Source: a virus (Duplodnaviria > Heunggongvirae > Uroviricota > Caudoviricetes). Taken from it: a DNA stretch of 4,285 nt. Within the stretch, counting starts at the first letter, position 1; each line of letters starts with the position of its first letter. Where the stretch lies: the IMG/VR virus record IMGVR_UViG_3300018471_000107, positions 1 to 4,285 of that record. One strand, 5' to 3'. Of the stretch, positions 631-4,285 are shown piece by piece. Made by a program: the position numbers and the translations under genes. A model generated the notes under the pieces. That model was not told where the DNA came from, did no database searches, and was given only the letters and a program-made list of their open reading frames with translations.

Positions 631-1383
631 TTATCTCGTCACCTTCCTCAATTGCGCTTCCGCGTATGCTTCTTCCTGCCAGCACTTTGTTACCAGTTTA
701 CCAATGACGTCCGCATACCCCTTATACCACTGATAATCGGTCAGGTCTGGTACCAGCTTCTGGACATGACGTCGTGCCAGCGTGGTCGGTAAACGACTAA
801 ATCGGTTTCCATTACAACGCCCACAAATCTTATATACCGGTACGCCATGAAACCGGGTTCTTTTTTCATCCAGAACAATCCCTTTACCCTTACACCCTCT
901 GCACGCTGTGCTGGCTTCGCCCTTACCATGGCAATGCTGACATAGTTCCTTCACCCATTCTTCCTTGATTACAGATTCCCCGCGTCTGTAGTGTTTCACC
1001 ACTTCGCGCAATACATTATAAAATCCCGTACCTGAACAATGCTCACAGCGAGCCTTACTTGCCGCAGACCTGGAGTAATCAGCAAAGGCAAAACTCACGA
1101 GGTAAGGAATAATCTGTAACCGGATTTCTTCACTCAATTTGTTCAATGTCGGGTTATCCAGTGCCATCGCGTAATTTAGCAGGCCTTCAATCGCAAACTG
1201 AGGGTCCTGAACACCAACTTTTGCCAGAAATAAGGCCAACCCAAGTGGTGCTTTCGACTGCACCATCCCCTGCGCTGCCATTACATCCGTAATTGTTAAA
1301 CAACCGGTGCCTGTCGCTGGAGCGTCATCGCTCAATTTTGGAGATTTTGGGGAGTAATATTTTGGTAAGGCTTCAAGGTTCAT
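631..1383 (-). CDS. quuQ: Antitermination protein Q, QuuQ/Phage_antitermQ type, 250 aa
   Basis: ORF 631..1413 translation matches the Q antiterminator family as I recall it. I place the start at the internal ATG 1383 (MNLEALPKYY...) because GGAGAA lies 5 nt upstream of it, whereas the track start at 1413 would overlap the upstream gene by 17 nt. This gives 250 aa and a 13-bp gap to the upstream gene, the same length and spacing I recall for quuQ and ydfU in E. coli K-12 Qin. Four CxxCxG motifs are present. Stop TAA 631-633. Confidence 0.85.
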   Translation of the reverse strand: MNLEALPKYYSPKSPKLSDDAPATGTGCLTITDVMAAQGMVQSKAPLGLALFLAKVGVQDPQFAIEGLLNYAMALDNPTLNKLSEEIRLQIIPYLVSFAFADYSRSAASKARCEHCSGTGFYNVLREVVKHYRRGESVIKEEWVKELCQHCHGKGEASTACRGCKGKGIVLDEKRTRFHGVPVYKICGRCNGNRFSRLPTTLARRHVQKLVPDLTDYQWYKGYADVIGKLVTKCWQEEAYAEAQLRKVTR

Positions 1384-1396
1384 GCTCGTTCTCCAC

Positions 1397-2392
1397 TTAC
1401 GCCAGTACGCCAATTGCCAGCGCGCGATCGATAAAACGAAATATCAGCTCCAGTTGGGAGCCATACTTCTCTTCAAATGCCACGGTATCCGCATGCAGCT
1501 CGTCGTGATGCTTTCTGCACAAAGGCAACACAAAAAGGTCATGCGCTTTTGTTCCCATTCCACCCTGACCGTGACCTATCAGGTGGTGGGGATCATCAGC
1601 AGGCTTTCCACAACATGCACACGGCTGTGTCTTAACCCAGCGCGTGTACTTTTCATTAACCCAGCGGCGACGTTTGGGGCGTAACATAAAAGACTCCGGC
1701 GACTCCGGCTCCACTTTCAGCGCCAGCACCTTTTTCGCCTTATCCTGGATGATGCTGGTGGCAGGAACCGAAGGAACAAGGTCACTTTCCCGGGTGACAG
1801 ACGGCACAACAGGCTTCGGTAATCTCAGTGCCTTACGGGCTGCACTTTCCGGTAAGGCATCCGCCAGGTCATTACGAACCAGCCACCAGCATAGTTCCGG
1901 CATTGTCACAACGTGACTATCATCAAAACCGAGATCCCGACGCACAACAGACAACACCCAGCGGGCACAGTTATCCGTTGCCATTGATTCCAGCCGTTCC
2001 GTAAACTGATCGCGCAGCTGGTTATCGCAGTGCCAGCACAGACGGATTGCACCCGGAGCGTGTCGCATTGTGGTCATGTTCTCGCTGTGCCAGTCGGAAT
2101 GAGGCCACTGGCAGCCTTTTTCACGAAGTAACCAGCTTTCAAGACATTCCACGCCACCAGCACGACGGATCACTGCCTCATCGCGGAACACGGCCCGAAC
2201 GGCAGGATCATCCGCCAGCGGTTGTGATGCCGCCGGAACGGCACCACTGGCGAAAGATGAATAACGCTCCGGCTCAGGCTCCAGCAGGACACGCCCCTGC
2301 ATAAACAGGGGCATCAGCTCTGAACCTGGCCTGAACAATACGATCCCCATACGCGGGGCAATTTCAGGGGTCAGTAGTGCTCTCACGGTCAC
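1397..2392 (-). CDS. ydfU: DUF968 family protein (YdfU-like) with a C-terminal HNH-like Cys/His cluster; putative nuclease or zinc-binding protein
   Basis: 331-codon ORF ending TAA 1397-1399. The C-terminus reads PCACCGKPADDPHHLIGHGQGGMGTKAHDLFVLPLCRKHHDELH, the Cys/His signature I associate with DUF968/YdfU prophage proteins. It sits immediately upstream of Q, as ydfU does in Qin. The track start is GTG at 2392, 1 nt after the upstream stop; GTG at 2386 with GAGGTG just upstream is a likelier start, so the start is uncertain by a few codons. Confidence 0.8.
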   Translation of the reverse strand: MTVRALLTPEIAPRMGIVLFRPGSELMPLFMQGRVLLEPEPERYSSFASGAVPAASQPLADDPAVRAVFRDEAVIRRAGGVECLESWLLREKGCQWPHSDWHSENMTTMRHAPGAIRLCWHCDNQLRDQFTERLESMATDNCARWVLSVVRRDLGFDDSHVVTMPELCWWLVRNDLADALPESAARKALRLPKPVVPSVTRESDLVPSVPATSIIQDKAKKVLALKVEPESPESFMLRPKRRRWVNEKYTRWVKTQPCACCGKPADDPHHLIGHGQGGMGTKAHDLFVLPLCRKHHDELHADTVAFEEKYGSQLELIFRFIDRALAIGVLA

Positions 2393-2393
2393 C

Positions 2394-3203
2394 TCAATGA
2401 ACGGTATCGAGCAGCTTTAACAGCTCAGTGAATCGGGATTCGAAGAAATGCGGCTGCGTCTCGCGCGGATTTGCAGGACTGGTGATGTTCTTGCCGAACA
2501 TGCAGCCTTTCGCCGTCAGCGACCAGAATTTTTTGATGTTGTTAATCGCTGTACGGCTGTATCGTTCGCGCTGTTCGACGATCCCCAGCTTCGCCATCTG
2601 GTGATATGCCTGATTAGCCGTCAGGCGGATACCATACTGCTTCAGCAGTGCACTCAGTGACAGCGTGGGGCGGCTTGAGCCATCAGGCGCGTCAGCAGGA
2701 GCATCAATGGCATAACGCGGTGCCAGATTCGGTAAGCCAACAGCCTCCTGGAGTTTCTGACAGGCCCCAAGCACAGATGAGTTAGACAGATTTAACTCCC
2801 GGCGCATAAAGTCCAGCAGAATCACGCCAGCCTGCATCTTGTCAGCAGCCTGTCCGGATAACTTTTCCGGCGCGCTGGTTACCATATCGAAAGTACGGAT
2901 CACCTTCAGATGGAATGACGGGCTGATCCACATTGCATAGGCATACACCAGTTCCTTACAGACATACGTTCCCCGTTCATTTCCCCCATGAATCACACTA
3001 ACTGGGTCAACACCCAAATTCTGGGTGTTGATTAATTCATGAACAAGATCAACAGTTTGTTGGCTGGAAAGAAACTTTCCTGGCTCCTTGGTTCTGGCAT
3101 TTGCACCAGATGCTACTGCTGCGCGATGCAGATCGTTCAGGCTGTAACGCTCATAAGCATCACGACGAACTTCAATACCATCAATGACCATCAGATTATT
3201 CAT
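2394..3203 (-). CDS. KilA-N domain-containing protein (putative phage antirepressor or DNA-binding regulator), 269 aa
   Basis: The N-terminal ~100 aa (VIDGIEVRRDAYERYSLNDL...GTYVCKELVYAYAMWISPSFHLKVI) fit the KilA-N/APSES-like pattern, including the G-T-[WY]-V and W-[IL]-S-P-x-F signature. The C-terminal ~160 aa is unassigned. Start ATG 3203 is preceded by AGAGGGGAAA; stop TGA 2394-2396. Confidence 0.8.
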   Translation of the reverse strand: MNNLMVIDGIEVRRDAYERYSLNDLHRAAVASGANARTKEPGKFLSSQQTVDLVHELINTQNLGVDPVSVIHGGNERGTYVCKELVYAYAMWISPSFHLKVIRTFDMVTSAPEKLSGQAADKMQAGVILLDFMRRELNLSNSSVLGACQKLQEAVGLPNLAPRYAIDAPADAPDGSSRPTLSLSALLKQYGIRLTANQAYHQMAKLGIVEQRERYSRTAINNIKKFWSLTAKGCMFGKNITSPANPRETQPHFFESRFTELLKLLDTVH

Positions 3204-3222: not shown

Positions 3223-3321
3223 TCAGGCAGCTGCACCCGCCGTTTTCTCGTACTTACTGATAGTGATCTCGACCTTCCCTTCCGGGATAACCGGTCCCCA
3301 CTCCACCAGCATTCTTTTCAC
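3223..3321 (-). pseudogene. rusA: rusA 3' remnant: 32 in-frame codons after the internal amber codon, encoding the RusA C-terminus
   Basis: Reading through TAG at 3322-3324 in the same frame gives VKRMLVEWGPVIPEGKVEITISKYEKTAGAAA, then TGA at 3223-3225. This aligns with the RusA C-terminus as I recall it ([28 protein letters not shown]). The TGA lies 19 nt upstream of the KilA-N start and its RBS, the normal operon spacing. Confidence 0.6.
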
Positions 3322-3612
3322 CTAGCTGTCGTCTTCCCACACACCCGCGTGGGTCAGGGCGTCAAACAGCGCCTTGTTATAGTTGTCCAGATCGCGGATC
3401 CTGTTATCCGGAGGAAACAACACGATCTCCACTGAAGCAGGTGCCGACGTTGGTTTCGGCAGACGACGTAACTGCTCAACTATTGCTGCGCACGCCGCGC
3501 TCTGGAATTTTCGCCCCGCCGCGCTTATCAGGCTCTTACCAGCAAACGCCCCTTTGTTGGGGTGTCGCCAGTACGTGTTCACGCTGGGCGGAAAAGGCAG
3601 GATCAGCTTCAT
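3322..3612 (-). CDS. rusA: Crossover junction endodeoxyribonuclease RusA, truncated by a premature in-frame amber codon (96-aa product)
   Basis: Translation MKLILPFPPSVNTYWRH...DNRIRDLDNYNKALFDALTHAGVWEDDS matches RusA, including the catalytic acidic motifs RDLDN and WxDD. The ORF ends at TAG 3322-3324, at a position where E. coli RusA has Gln. Start ATG 3610-3612 overlaps the upstream stop in an ATGA arrangement. Confidence 0.8.
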   Translation of the reverse strand: MKLILPFPPSVNTYWRHPNKGAFAGKSLISAAGRKFQSAACAAIVEQLRRLPKPTSAPASVEIVLFPPDNRIRDLDNYNKALFDALTHAGVWEDDS

Positions 3613-3935
3613 ACTTTCAGGCCCCTCTCATGTAACCAGTGGGTTGCACGCAGCCTTGCGTTTTCCTCACCGGCAAGCAGTGAGCGGATAATCCCGACCG
3701 CCTCGCTGTCGTCGTCCTTCACCGCGGTATGAAGCGTGATGCCCCGGGCCACGCCACGCTTTATCGTGATGACGCCTTTTTTCTCCAGTGCGCGAAGATG
3801 CTCCACCGCTGCATTCACTGAACGGTATCCCAGCATGGTTGCCACCTCCTGATTGGTTGGCGGGAAGCCACGTTCTTTCTGATAAGAAATCAGCATATCC
3901 AGCACCTGCTGCTGGCATTGAGTTAACGTCGTCAT
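3609..3935 (-). CDS. LexA N-terminal DNA-binding domain protein lacking the S24 peptidase domain, 108 aa
   Basis: Translation MTTLTQCQQQVLDMLISYQKERGFPPTNQEVATMLGYRSVNAAVEHLRALEKKGVITIKRGVARGITL aligns closely with the LexA winged-helix domain ([66 protein letters not shown]). It is followed by a linker-like AVGIIRSLLAGEEN resembling LexA LVGRVAAGEP, then ends 20 aa later with no catalytic core. I chose ATG 3933-3935 (TAATG overlap with the upstream stop, G-rich RBS) over the track start at 3968. Stop TGA 3609-3611. Confidence 0.75.
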   Translation of the reverse strand: MTTLTQCQQQVLDMLISYQKERGFPPTNQEVATMLGYRSVNAAVEHLRALEKKGVITIKRGVARGITLHTAVKDDDSEAVGIIRSLLAGEENARLRATHWLHERGLKV

Positions 3936-4285
3936 TAAGCCCCCACGTAATTCCCTGACAGATACCACTCATCACCCGATGCAGCGCGCTTGCTGCTTTT
4001 CCGTAAGCACCGCTCACGACGCGCAAGAAAATTGTTTCGCTCTTGCTGGGAGTGGCTTTCACGGAATGCCGCCATCCACACCGTTGCAGCACGACGGTAT
4101 AAGCCCCTGGACTCCAGTTCTTCCGCCTGGCGGGTCAGGCACAAAATCTCCCGCGGGTCGTTAGTGCCGACATAGAAATTGCGCACAGGTCTGGTTTCAC
4201 GAACTGGTTGCGGTTCCGCCTCCTGCGCTCTCTCAGTCAGGCGCGGGAAATGTCTGCGTGTATCCCCTTCACAACGGTGAGCCAC
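3935..4285 (-). CDS. PerC-family transcriptional regulator (Pch-like), partial; 5' end lies beyond the right edge of the window
   Basis: The frame is open to the window edge (116 codons). It contains QAEELESRGLYRRAATVW, matching the PerC/Pch signature AE.LE..GLWRRAA..W as I recall it. Stop TAA 3935-3937 overlaps the next start. A GTG at 4184-4186 is a possible internal start but has no clear RBS. Confidence 0.6.
   Translation of the reverse strand: MAHRCEGDTRRHFPRLTERAQEAEPQPVRETRPVRNFYVGTNDPREILCLTRQAEELESRGLYRRAATVWMAAFRESHSQQERNNFLARRERCLRKSSKRAASGDEWYLSGNYVGA

Follow-up and report, generated by a model that had tools for sequence, protein, structure and literature searches.

Adjacent genes within a phage early region may be components of a dedicated two-protein system, or they may simply occupy neighboring positions within a conserved gene order. 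This question is raised here by a gene for a KilA-N protein and a gene for a DUF968 protein, which occur within a 4,285-nucleotide stretch of DNA from a tailed phage (the whole of which is termed here the window). The initial annotation had described the two as a pair directly upstream of the antiterminator gene Q and had suggested that they might form an accessory module, such as an antirepressor with a nuclease; the observation is confirmed by the analysis described here and the interpretation is partly supported. The reading favored here, to which we assign a probability of about 0.6, is that these are separate genes of a lambdoid prophage--namely, an accessory DNA-binding regulator and a YdfU/PdcB nuclease--that lie in a conserved gene order. 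It draws upon the observed identity of the genes, their domain families, the conservation of metal-binding and catalytic residues, and the distribution and synteny of both genes. According to the list of open reading frames both genes lie on the minus strand, directly upstream of Q, and the features to which the text refers are as follows:

631..1383, minus strand: antiterminator Q of the lambda-Q type (PF03589, 181 bits), immediately downstream of the DUF968 gene
1397..2386, minus strand: DUF968 / YdfU / PdcB-family gene, 329 aa from GTG 2384-2386 (PF06147, phrog_96)
1493..1621, minus strand: His-Me (HNH) finger core of the DUF968 protein, C256 to H298 (HNHc_6, hhalign to YbcO)
2027..2113, minus strand: N-terminal Cys/His cluster of the DUF968 protein (C92, H100, C117, C120), a second zinc site predicted from conservation
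2394..3203, minus strand: KilA-N family gene, 269 aa, stop codon TGA 2394-2396 (PF04383, phrog_129)
2397..2870, minus strand: C-terminal module of the KilA-N protein, residues ~112-269, without a Pfam model
2877..3185, minus strand: KilA-N DNA-binding domain, residues 7-109 (Pfam PF04383)
2973..3119, minus strand: hypervariable cassette within the KilA-N domain, residues ~29-77 (comparison of 78 loci)
3223..3612, minus strand: rusA (PF05866), immediately upstream of the KilA-N gene

The distance between the two genes depends upon where the DUF968 gene (stop codon, 1397-1399) begins. It had been placed at GTG 2390-2392, which would yield a protein of 331 aa and a separation of 1 nt. That codon exists, but the Shine-Dalgarno sequence GAGG (2392-2395) overlaps it; a second in-frame GTG, at 2384-2386, is preceded by the same GAGG with a 5-nt spacer, is the start chosen in the PGAP (NCBI) annotation of the closest genome, and gives the N-terminus MRALL, which is found in 22 of 22 close homologs. 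Because of the GAGG spacing, the PGAP start and the MRALL terminus, the product is most likely 329 aa long and the gap most likely 7 nt rather than 1 nt. Q most likely starts at ATG 1381-1383, that is, 13 nt past the DUF968 stop codon, and encodes 250 aa, matching the 250 aa annotated for ydfT of K-12; its sequence matches the Qin-type Q of loci L029 and L030 at 100% identity. At the other end of the pair, rusA contains an in-frame TAG at 3322-3324 (a change from CAG relative to three aligned relatives) and is hence either a pseudogene or an amber allele.

Profile searches, which had been proposed as a check on both proteins, gave matches far above chance: PF04383 matches residues 7-109 of the KilA-N protein with 74.5 bits (gathering cut-off, 23.8) and PF06147 matches residues 162-328 of the DUF968 protein with 270.7 bits (gathering cut-off, 27.8). 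The KilA-N protein is also matched over its full length by phrog_129 ('transcriptional regulator') and is 97-99% identical to E. coli proteins that carry the annotation 'KilA-N domain-containing'; neither protein has a model in NCBIfam. AlphaFold2 (AF2) models of the two proteins are of moderate quality (mean pLDDT 65 and 73), and Foldseek searches of these against the PDB returned no significant match, the top match of the KilA-N model being the APSES DNA-binding domain of Mbp1 (weak, with E=0.57 and a TM score of 0.47 on the target). Within the KilA-N domain a cassette spanning residues ~29-77 appears to be swappable: at least five unrelated sequence versions of it occur among 78 loci, in which the KilA-N flanks and the DUF968 protein are 98-99% identical. 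Neither DUF968 nor any open reading frame within ±6 kb varies together with the cassette type (mutual information at most 0.18 of 1.87 bits). The notion that it is tied to some other gene, such as one for immunity or the type of Q, was therefore rejected for the ±6 kb considered, beyond which the immunity region may lie.

The remainder of the KilA-N protein (~residues 110-269, the C-terminal region of about 160 aa that the initial annotation had correctly singled out) has no Pfam match even at E<=10. This C-terminal module nevertheless shares 28-48% identity with the C-terminal halves of proteins that have Rha or Bro-N heads, from Pseudomonas, Klebsiella and Ruminococcus phages, proteins that in other phages adjoin cI/cro. 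AF2 predicts within it a helix-helix-hairpin unit (residues 180-254; pLDDT 76-88 save for one 10-residue block of ~60). Pfam searches found no ANT/KilAC, P22-Ant (P22_AR) or AntA domain in the protein (for the C-terminal module, down to E<=10), and the idea that the module is a divergent ANT/KilAC domain (PF03374) was dropped when hhalign comparisons with Rha+ANT proteins proved insignificant (E 0.15-0.5). The protein resembles P1 KilA, HK022 Roi and the Roi and Ant proteins of Stx phages in having an N-terminal KilA-N domain and exchangeable heads and tails, and the roi and ant genes of Stx phages likewise lie in the early region upstream of Q (PMC3430580). P1 KilA/Ant and the Rha+ANT proteins differ from it in possessing the ANT/KilAC domain.

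The C-terminus of the DUF968 protein is a zinc-stabilized His-Me (HNH) finger with a treble-clef-like fold, as had been surmised from its Cys/His cluster. The cluster is present exactly as first described--C256-A-C258-C259-G, H267-H268, H272 and C290-R-K-H293-H294-x3-H298 in the numbering of the 329-aa protein--and is conserved in homologs down to 25% identity. The protein is matched over its full length by phrog_96 ('HNH endonuclease', 587 bits) and marginally by HNHc_6 (PF16784; 26.9 bits against a cut-off of 26.6), and a profile of its C-terminal domain aligns in register over 47 columns with YbcO, whose structure has been solved (PDB 3g27; hhalign E=2e-5, probability 77%). Among 31 homologs, the most distant of which share 25% identity, the putative catalytic and metal-binding residues are conserved as follows: H267/H268 in 28, D283 in all 31, H294 in 28 and H298 in 28. 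For the C-terminal zinc site the corresponding counts are 31 for C256, 27 for C259 and 28 for C290, while position 293 is Cys in 14 and His in 13. The AF2 model has strands at 265-268 and 286-289 followed by a helix at 291-299, at low pLDDT (10-residue block means of 37-79).

The N-terminal part of this protein had been considered unassigned over ~250 aa; since PF06147 spans residues 162-328, the part that lacks a model is instead about 160 aa long. Those 160 residues have no Pfam match either in the window's protein or in any of the 31 homologs scanned singly, and profile searches of the region against PDB sequences gave no match. They do contain a second cluster, C92, H100, C117 and C120, that we predict to be a structural zinc site, a small addition to what has been noted about this family: C92 and C117 are invariant in the 31 homologs, position 100 is His in 18 and Cys in 13, and position 120 is His in 19 and Cys in 12. 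The spacing in the window's protein is C-x7-[H/C]-x16-C-x2-[C/H], of which the first two spacers vary slightly among homologs, and AF2 places a β-hairpin (104-117) and a helix (118-124) at the site (pLDDT 70-90). Two other assignments of this region were considered and set aside. A degenerate duplicate of the HNH finger is suggested by an in-register hhalign alignment of the N- and C-terminal regions, but its E-value is 0.075 and 30 of 200 column-shuffled controls score as high; and an Orf/NinB-like N-terminus, as in Gram-positive HNHc_6 proteins (the Orf/NinB-HNH fusions of Curtis et al. 2014), yields E 0.2-0.6 against lambda NinB and DLP12 YbcN. Nor does the protein belong to the NinG/Rap family (PF05766), which gives no match at E<=0.01, the hhalign comparison with lambda NinG covering 13 columns (E=0.0037, probability 9%).

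How the DUF968 protein relates to characterized and named systems bears upon what it may do. DUF968/YdfU constitutes, together with DUF1364 (YbcO, 3g27), group 7 of the His-Me finger superfamily (Jablonska et al. 2017, PMC5714182), members of which are fused to Erf, Rad52 or RusA in some genomes, and a role in recombination has been hypothesized (PMC5714182, PMC4118853). YdfU (b1560) of the K-12 prophage Qin has the same full-length architecture and the same Q (ydfT/quuQ) immediately downstream, though with rem rather than a KilA-N gene upstream; its His-Me module is 93-97% identical to that of the window, whereas residues 1-240 are only 37-57% identical, the window's allele being instead of the mEp460/SfII/Stx2c-phage type (98-99% identity). 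YbcO of DLP12 shares the homologous His-Me finger core and a site within the nin region, next to rusA and with a Q gene downstream; it is a protein of 96 aa consisting of the finger alone, whereas the window's protein has about 250 further residues, including the predicted second zinc site, and the gene order is ybcO-rusA-Q rather than rusA-KilA-N-DUF968-Q. Lambda NinG/Rap, a branch-specific endonuclease, also belongs to the His-Me superfamily (PMC5714182) and is encoded at a like relative position, close to where the nin region ends, in keeping with the earlier remark that the two genes sit where lambda carries ninG. It belongs to a different family, to which the likeness is limited to the CxxCG stretch; by virtue of the shared superfamily and relative genome position it is nonetheless the best functional analogy. 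P1 PdcB, finally, is a homolog (26% identity, 100% coverage) that keeps both zinc sites and, like the window's protein, is encoded directly upstream of a late activator gene (lpa), but its catalytic His-His, H294 and H298 are replaced and it has no KilA-N, RusA or Q neighbor. Because PdcB-like members have lost the His-His and distal His residues while the rest of the protein is kept, at least part of the function of the family would need no catalysis.

Both genes are widespread. Of 5426 complete E. coli genomes, 2265 (42%) contain the KilA-N/DUF968 junction, and the pair recurs in phages of Escherichia, Salmonella, Serratia, Morganella, Yersinia and Vibrio. Besides the window, 76 of 80 close IMG/VR loci have the order rusA - KilA-N - DUF968 - Q. 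So do Vibrio phage Pm34 and Morganella phage IME1369_02 (where DUF968 is only 38-40% and KilA-N 56-58% identical to the window's proteins), and the order is seen again in the distant lineages L140-L147 and L174. When 40 species-level loci are considered, however, the position immediately upstream of DUF968 is occupied by KilA-N in 8, Rha+ANT in 14, ORF6N+ANT in 1 and RusA in 6, such that 32 of the 40 lack an adjacent KilA-N gene; in other lineages proteins judged from their sequences to be DNA methyltransferase-like take this place. DUF968 is present without an adjoining KilA-N gene in phage P1 (pdcB) and Vibrio phage H20, while APSE-5 (protein G) and Klebsiella phage SopranoGao carry a KilA-N family protein without DUF968. 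Because each gene also occurs without the other, the two are facultative neighbors rather than an obligate two-gene system: their co-occurrence, which had been put forward as a check, is conserved within a lineage but not overall. The near-invariant neighbor of DUF968 is instead Q, which comes from three unrelated Pfam families and follows it in ~36 of 40 and ~39 of 42 loci; in P1, lpa directly follows the homolog.

Several further lines of comparison were pursued and then discarded. Mutual exclusion with NinG, as a sign of functional replacement, is uninformative because the other lambda nin genes are equally absent: in 120 loci the ±6 kb around DUF968 contain no homolog of NinG, YbcO, NinB, NinH or YbcN, a pattern that may reflect lineage. 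Apparent fusions of KilA-N with DUF968, which might have provided a Rosetta-stone link, are in-frame deletions or frameshifts in decayed prophages, and similar artifacts join RusA to KilA-N, LexA to DUF968 and DUF968 to Q. Nor do the defense models of PADLOC-DB v2 support a known anti-phage system, inasmuch as they yield no match to DUF968 and only a 36-residue match to the KilA-N protein (candidate PDC-S22, 22 bits).

In the reading favored here, both would be delayed-early genes of a lambdoid prophage, packed closely together where its P-to-Q ('nin') region has its distal end and transcribed rightward, toward Q. The KilA-N protein would be a DNA-binding protein built of two modules and belonging to the 'Roi/antirepressor-like' class, in which KilA-N, Rha and Bro-N parts are shuffled: an N-terminal, APSES-like KilA-N domain, the central segment of which may serve as a swappable specificity cassette, would be joined to a C-terminal module that is also used behind Rha and Bro-N heads. 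It most likely binds DNA sequence-specifically as an accessory early regulator and is probably not a classical repressor-binding antirepressor. The DUF968 protein would consist of an N-terminal structural zinc site, a helical middle, a flexible linker and a C-terminal, zinc-stabilized His-Me finger whose putative catalytic set (His-His, Asp and His) is intact. Judging from its fold, its position and the literature, its most likely activity is DNA cleavage, in a position that corresponds to that of lambda NinG/Rap and DLP12 YbcO. Its substrates are probably branched DNA or recombination or replication intermediates, upon which it would act together with RusA shortly before late transcription and packaging begin. 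The adjacency of the two genes would then reflect a conserved order, RusA - [variable DNA-binding protein slot] - DUF968 - Q, within which the two proteins presumably function independently. A point against this reading is that an upstream DNA-binding gene recurs and is often translationally coupled, which leaves some room for a functional link.

Such a link is the essence of a two-component module in which the upstream DNA-binding protein, having a KilA-N, Rha or ORF6N head, would target the DUF968 nuclease to, or license it at, specific sites, for example in order to exclude competing phages or to process phage DNA site-specifically. Consistent with this, the genes are adjacent or overlapping (the 7-nt gap here and, in the 14 loci with Rha+ANT and the one with ORF6N+ANT, an overlap of the ATGA type); an 'antirepressor-like' DNA-binding gene lies immediately upstream of DUF968 in 23 of 40 species-level loci and fills all 21 of the occupied RusA-DUF968 slots in that set; all 10 coordinate-comparable full-length KilA-N homologs at >=57% identity adjoin DUF968; the pair is retained in phages of Vibrio and Morganella; and the hypervariable cassette resembles a specificity determinant. 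Yet each partner occurs alone (in P1, H20, the RusA- and methyltransferase-adjacent loci, APSE-5 and SopranoGao), the type of upstream gene varies freely inside one DUF968 clade (61-71% identity), the cassette type is independent of DUF968 and of the surrounding genes, the fusions are artifactual, PADLOC lends no support, and tight packing is the rule for every gene in the region; a dedicated module is therefore unlikely. A more elaborate version, in which two-zinc-site YdfU/PdcB nucleases are retained as the last early gene before Q/Lpa and are targeted or licensed by an interchangeable KilA-N-, Rha- or ORF6N-headed partner, with the cassette setting site specificity--in effect, a programmable module for phage DNA processing or exclusion--seems very doubtful. 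The KilA-N protein might instead be a true antirepressor, binding the repressor of the prophage and so promoting induction in the manner of P22 Ant and Phi24B Ant, with DUF968 an unrelated neighbor. Stx phages indeed carry Ant and Roi genes in a similar region upstream of Q, where Ant of Phi24B enhances induction (PMC3430580, PMC3064807), and proteins with the same C-terminal module are neighbors of cI/cro in phages of Pseudomonas and Ruminococcus, one of them being annotated as an antirepressor. But the protein lacks ANT/KilAC, P22_AR and AntA domains and has no significant hhalign similarity to the neighboring ANT proteins; database 'antirepressor' labels are annotations by domain association rather than tests; and a gene read from pR only after derepression cannot start the induction of its own prophage. 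This possibility is consequently rated as rather unlikely.

Two further alternatives concern DUF968 alone. Its main role may lie not in recombination but in the early-to-late switch, as a DNA-binding or DNA-processing factor acting with the late activator, which would explain why the gene always abuts Q or lpa. Q does lie immediately downstream in most of ~82 diverse loci, the P1 homolog immediately precedes lpa, and the PdcB-like members without catalytic histidines keep both zinc sites and the overall architecture. Against this, unrelated genes also end the early operon in other lambdoid phages (ninI in lambda), RusA lies between DUF968 and Q in loci L033-L035, L135 and L136, P1 pdcB is non-essential, its knock-down leaving plating unchanged, whereas lpa is essential (PMC10695390), and 28 of 31 diverse members keep the catalytic residues; such a role is accordingly quite improbable. 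Still less credible, to the point of being highly unlikely, is a role in packaging, as an HNH endonuclease that would help terminase in the way of HK97 gp74: this is an HNH-family protein of a tailed temperate phage, and P1 pdcB is two genes upstream of pacA and pacB, but in lambdoid loci Q, the lysis cassette and other genes separate DUF968 from terminase, the pac-proximal P1 homolog is the one without catalytic histidines, and the HNH proteins that are associated with terminase fall into other His-Me groups (PMC5714182).

The HNH assignment of DUF968, together with its RusA, Q and antirepressor neighborhood, was already known, having been published in 2017. Given, moreover, that thousands of genomes carry both genes under their names in the annotation, the pair is an ordinary one and the finding matters little in itself. 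Apart from the N-terminal zinc site, the small points that appear to be newly noted are the C-terminal module that the KilA-N protein has in common with Rha and Bro-N proteins and the hypervariable cassette. These three features, along with the PdcB-like relatives that are predicted to be catalytically dead and the near-invariant DUF968-Q adjacency, may serve as handles for characterizing these common prophage genes. The elements that carry both genes include Stx-converting phages, Shigella serotype-converting phages and many cryptic prophages.

The KilA-N/DUF968 pair is real, ordinary and already catalogued: the 601-nt junction between the two genes occurs at ≥95% identity in 2265 of 5426 complete E. 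coli genomes, its two sides labelled there as 'KilA-N domain-containing protein' and 'DUF968 domain-containing protein', and DUF968 proteins 98-99% identical to that of the window are encoded by phages mEp460, SfII, SfIV and cdtI and by many Stx2-converting phages. The closest complete E. coli genome matches the whole window at 96.3% identity, labels its genes PerC, LexA family, RusA, KilA-N domain-containing, DUF968 domain-containing and ydfT antitermination protein Q, and carries this copy within a prophage, between the lysis, terminase and capsid genes and an integrase. In the window the genes of the early region all lie on the minus strand and are transcribed in the order PerC, LexA-DBD, rusA, KilA-N, DUF968, Q:

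3935-4285, minus: PerC-family regulator, truncated by the window end
3609-3968, minus: LexA DNA-binding-domain-only protein
3223-3612, minus: rusA
2394-3203, minus: KilA-N gene
1397-2386/2392, minus: DUF968 gene
631-1383, minus: lambda-type antiterminator Q
571-600, minus: promoter-like site TTTGCA-18-TAAAAT, just downstream of Q
502-525: symmetric GC-rich hairpin (terminator) with A and T runs on either side, about 50 nt past the promoter-like site
beyond Q, plus: cspF-like gene

The candidate promoter and hairpin past Q are arranged as expected of the late promoter pR' and, after a short leader, the terminator tR'.

On coordinates, strand, stop codon and Cys/His pattern the initial annotation is correct; its DUF968 start (GTG 2390-2392, leaving a 1-nt gap to the KilA-N gene) gives way to GTG 2384-2386. 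The former codon is overlapped by its sole Shine-Dalgarno candidate (GAGG 2392-2395), whereas the latter lies 5 nt downstream of that motif, is the PGAP start in the closest genome and corresponds to the N-terminus of all close homologues. Hence the gap between the KilA-N stop and the DUF968 start is most likely 7 nt and the DUF968 protein most likely 329 residues long. Because the Pfam model spans residues 162-328, the part without a family model shrinks from a supposed 250 residues or so to about 160.

The proposal that the C-terminus of the DUF968 protein adopts an HNH fold holds: judged by profile comparison, the last third of the protein is a His-Me (HNH) finger. The protein matches HNHc_6 (with a score barely over threshold), is a full-length member of PHROG 96 ('HNH endonuclease'), and its C-domain profile aligns with YbcO (3g27), a solved His-Me protein, at E=2e-5. 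Within an alignment of 31 full-length DUF968 homologues, at identities down to 25%, the zinc ligands are kept at C256 (31/31), C259 (27/31), C290 (28/31) and position 293 (C or H, 27/31), and the catalytic set at H267/H268 (28/31), D283 (31/31), H294 (28/31) and H298 (28/31). This assignment is already published and is not new: Jablonska et al. (PMC5714182) place DUF968 (YdfU) and DUF1364 (YbcO) in His-Me group 7, list RusA, Q and an antirepressor as the usual DUF968 neighbours and propose a role in recombination or repair, and Curtis et al. (PMC4118853) describe this domain fused to Erf, Rad52 and RusA.

Three features go beyond that literature: a zinc site in the N-terminal region, members lacking the catalytic histidines, and a mosaic joint at the His-Me module. 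In the N-terminal region, a second four-ligand site combines two invariant residues, C92 and C117, with positions 100 and 120, where His and Cys alternate and no other residue occurs among the 31 homologues; such exchange is a signature of structural zinc, and the site, which falls on a predicted beta-hairpin and helix (pLDDT 70-90), is predicted to be one. Pfam, PDB sequence and profile searches with this region all came back empty, no likeness to Orf/NinB was detected, and Foldseek returned nothing significant for the DUF968 protein. An origin of the N-terminal region as a copy of the protein's own HNH finger was considered and rejected, the in-register similarity being matched by 30 of 200 column shuffles. 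The members lacking the catalytic histidines resemble P1 PdcB: in three database proteins of the alignment (P0309, P0313 and P0375) the His-His pair, H294 and H298 are replaced, without loss of either Cys/His zinc site or of the full architecture, and P1 PdcB itself (pdcB, 3501-4544 of collected locus L124), a full-length homologue of 26% identity, has likewise lost its catalytic His; these are probably catalytically inactive relatives. The mosaic joint emerges from comparison with K-12 Qin YdfU: identity to the window protein is 37-57% for residues 1-240 and rises to 93-97% for residues 241-329 (window ~1400-1666), a contrast that marks the His-Me module as the joint.

The KilA-N protein likewise falls into two parts. 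Residues 7-109 form a clear KilA-N domain by Pfam, and the best structural match to the predicted model, though weak, is the APSES domain of Mbp1, a known relative of KilA-N. The remaining ~155 residues (about 112-269; window 2397-2870) have no Pfam match, and any similarity to ANT/KilAC is not significant. By tblastn (28-48% identity), this C-module recurs behind Rha heads in Pseudomonas Medea1, Klebsiella SopranoGao and Ruminococcus phiRgIBDN1 and behind a Bro-N head in Pseudomonas Alize; the proteins of Medea1, Alize and phiRgIBDN1 adjoin cI/cro. It is a real, mobile and widespread shuffled domain, and its exchange among KilA-N, Rha and Bro-N heads places the protein in the known 'Roi/antirepressor-like' class of DNA-binding proteins, without the domain behind that class's antirepressor label. 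Inside the KilA-N domain lies a hypervariable cassette (residues ~29-77; window 2973-3119): in 78 loci with flanking sequence and DUF968 98-99% identical it takes at least five unrelated forms, and cassette type shows no linkage to other ORFs within 6 kb on either side. In collected loci of more distant lineages (L148-L156 and L167) a Rha head with the same C-module is encoded in the same operon ~1.7-3.5 kb upstream of DUF968, not adjacent to it, and methyltransferase-like genes hold the slot next to DUF968.

Do the two genes form a dedicated system, as the suggestion of an antirepressor-plus-nuclease module implied? A KilA-N gene ends 8 nt upstream of DUF968 in 76 of 80 viral contigs, all close relatives with DUF968 98-99% identical. 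Across 40 species-level loci (one genome per species; DUF968 identity 98% down to 33%), the gene directly upstream encodes a Rha+ANT protein in 14, a KilA-N family protein in 8 (one with an extra 172-aa gene between), a small Qin-type ORF in 7, RusA in 6, PerC or LexA-N in 3 and an ORF6N+ANT protein in 1, the last locus being fragmentary. Among 44 loci of more distant lineages, KilA-N family proteins adjoin DUF968 in 6 (plus 2 with fragments), Rha-type proteins in several, and proteins judged by sequence alone to be DNA methyltransferase-like in ~14. Co-occurrence holds within a lineage but is facultative. The pair recurs, and the order rusA - KilA-N - DUF968 - Q is intact in Vibrio phage Pm34 and Morganella phage IME1369_02 (DUF968 38-40% and KilA-N 56-58% identical to the window proteins); moreover, DUF968 lies next door in 10 of 10 phage records encoding full-length KilA-N homologues of ≥57% identity, counting only records with both coordinate sets listed. 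Each gene also occurs without the other: DUF968 has no adjacent KilA-N in P1 (phd-doc-pdcA-pdcB-lpa) or Vibrio phage H20, and neither APSE protein G (39% identical to the KilA-N protein) nor any of the many proteins sharing only the C-module has a DUF968 neighbour.

A functional partnership is possible but unlikely, in that a gene for a DNA-binding protein regularly abuts DUF968 and, in the species-level set, a filled RusA-DUF968 gap holds a head-plus-tail DNA-binding protein in 21 of 21 cases; against it stand this independent occurrence, the free swapping of upstream genes between members of a single DUF968 clade and an absence of co-variation. With no genuine fusions either, the evidence points to conservation of gene order rather than a dedicated two-protein system, and neither protein matches known defence systems. 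The constant neighbour of DUF968 is instead the late activator: Q lies downstream, directly or past RusA, in ~36/40 and ~39/42 loci, is drawn from three unrelated Pfam families (PF03589, PF06530 and PF06323), and in P1 the gene downstream of pdcB is lpa. The last genes of the early rightward operon would thus keep the order RusA, variable DNA-binding-protein slot, DUF968, Q. The window Q (631-1383) and the Qin-type Q share 100% identity; at loci with 99%-identical DUF968, Q is usually 93-95% identical.

The best-supported mechanism for the DUF968 protein would be that of a metal-dependent DNA nuclease acting late in the early phase; lambda NinG/Rap and DLP12 YbcO resemble it in position and superfamily. 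P1 pdcB is dispensable for plating (PMC10695390). The KilA-N protein would, on the best-supported reading, bind DNA sequence-specifically, its internal cassette being the putative specificity determinant.

KilA-N+DUF968 'fusions' in databases are in-frame deletions or frameshifts rather than evolved fusions (in database protein P0064, for instance, KilA-N residues 1-237 continue into DUF968 residues 69-329); similar artefacts pair RusA with KilA-N, or DUF968 with LexA-N, DnaC-like or O-like genes. P0064, P0014 and P0123 (KilA-N+DUF968 and RusA+KilA-N) read as traces of prophage decay. The window's rusA has an in-frame TAG at 3322-3324 (minus), where three relatives have CAG (Gln97), so this Holliday-junction resolvase gene is a pseudogene or amber allele, which suggests a prophage in decay. 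The LexA-type protein (3609-3968, minus; 108-119 aa), with a winged helix (PF01726; TIGR00498 over residues 1-91) and no match to the S24 peptidase domain, could mimic LexA, in non-cleavable form, while the phage grows. Finally, some otherwise collinear E. coli prophages (genome matches H2-H5 and H8-H10) contain an extra gene, absent from the window, labelled phage N-6-adenine-methyltransferase; these matches fall in two pieces and are ~650 bp longer than the window.
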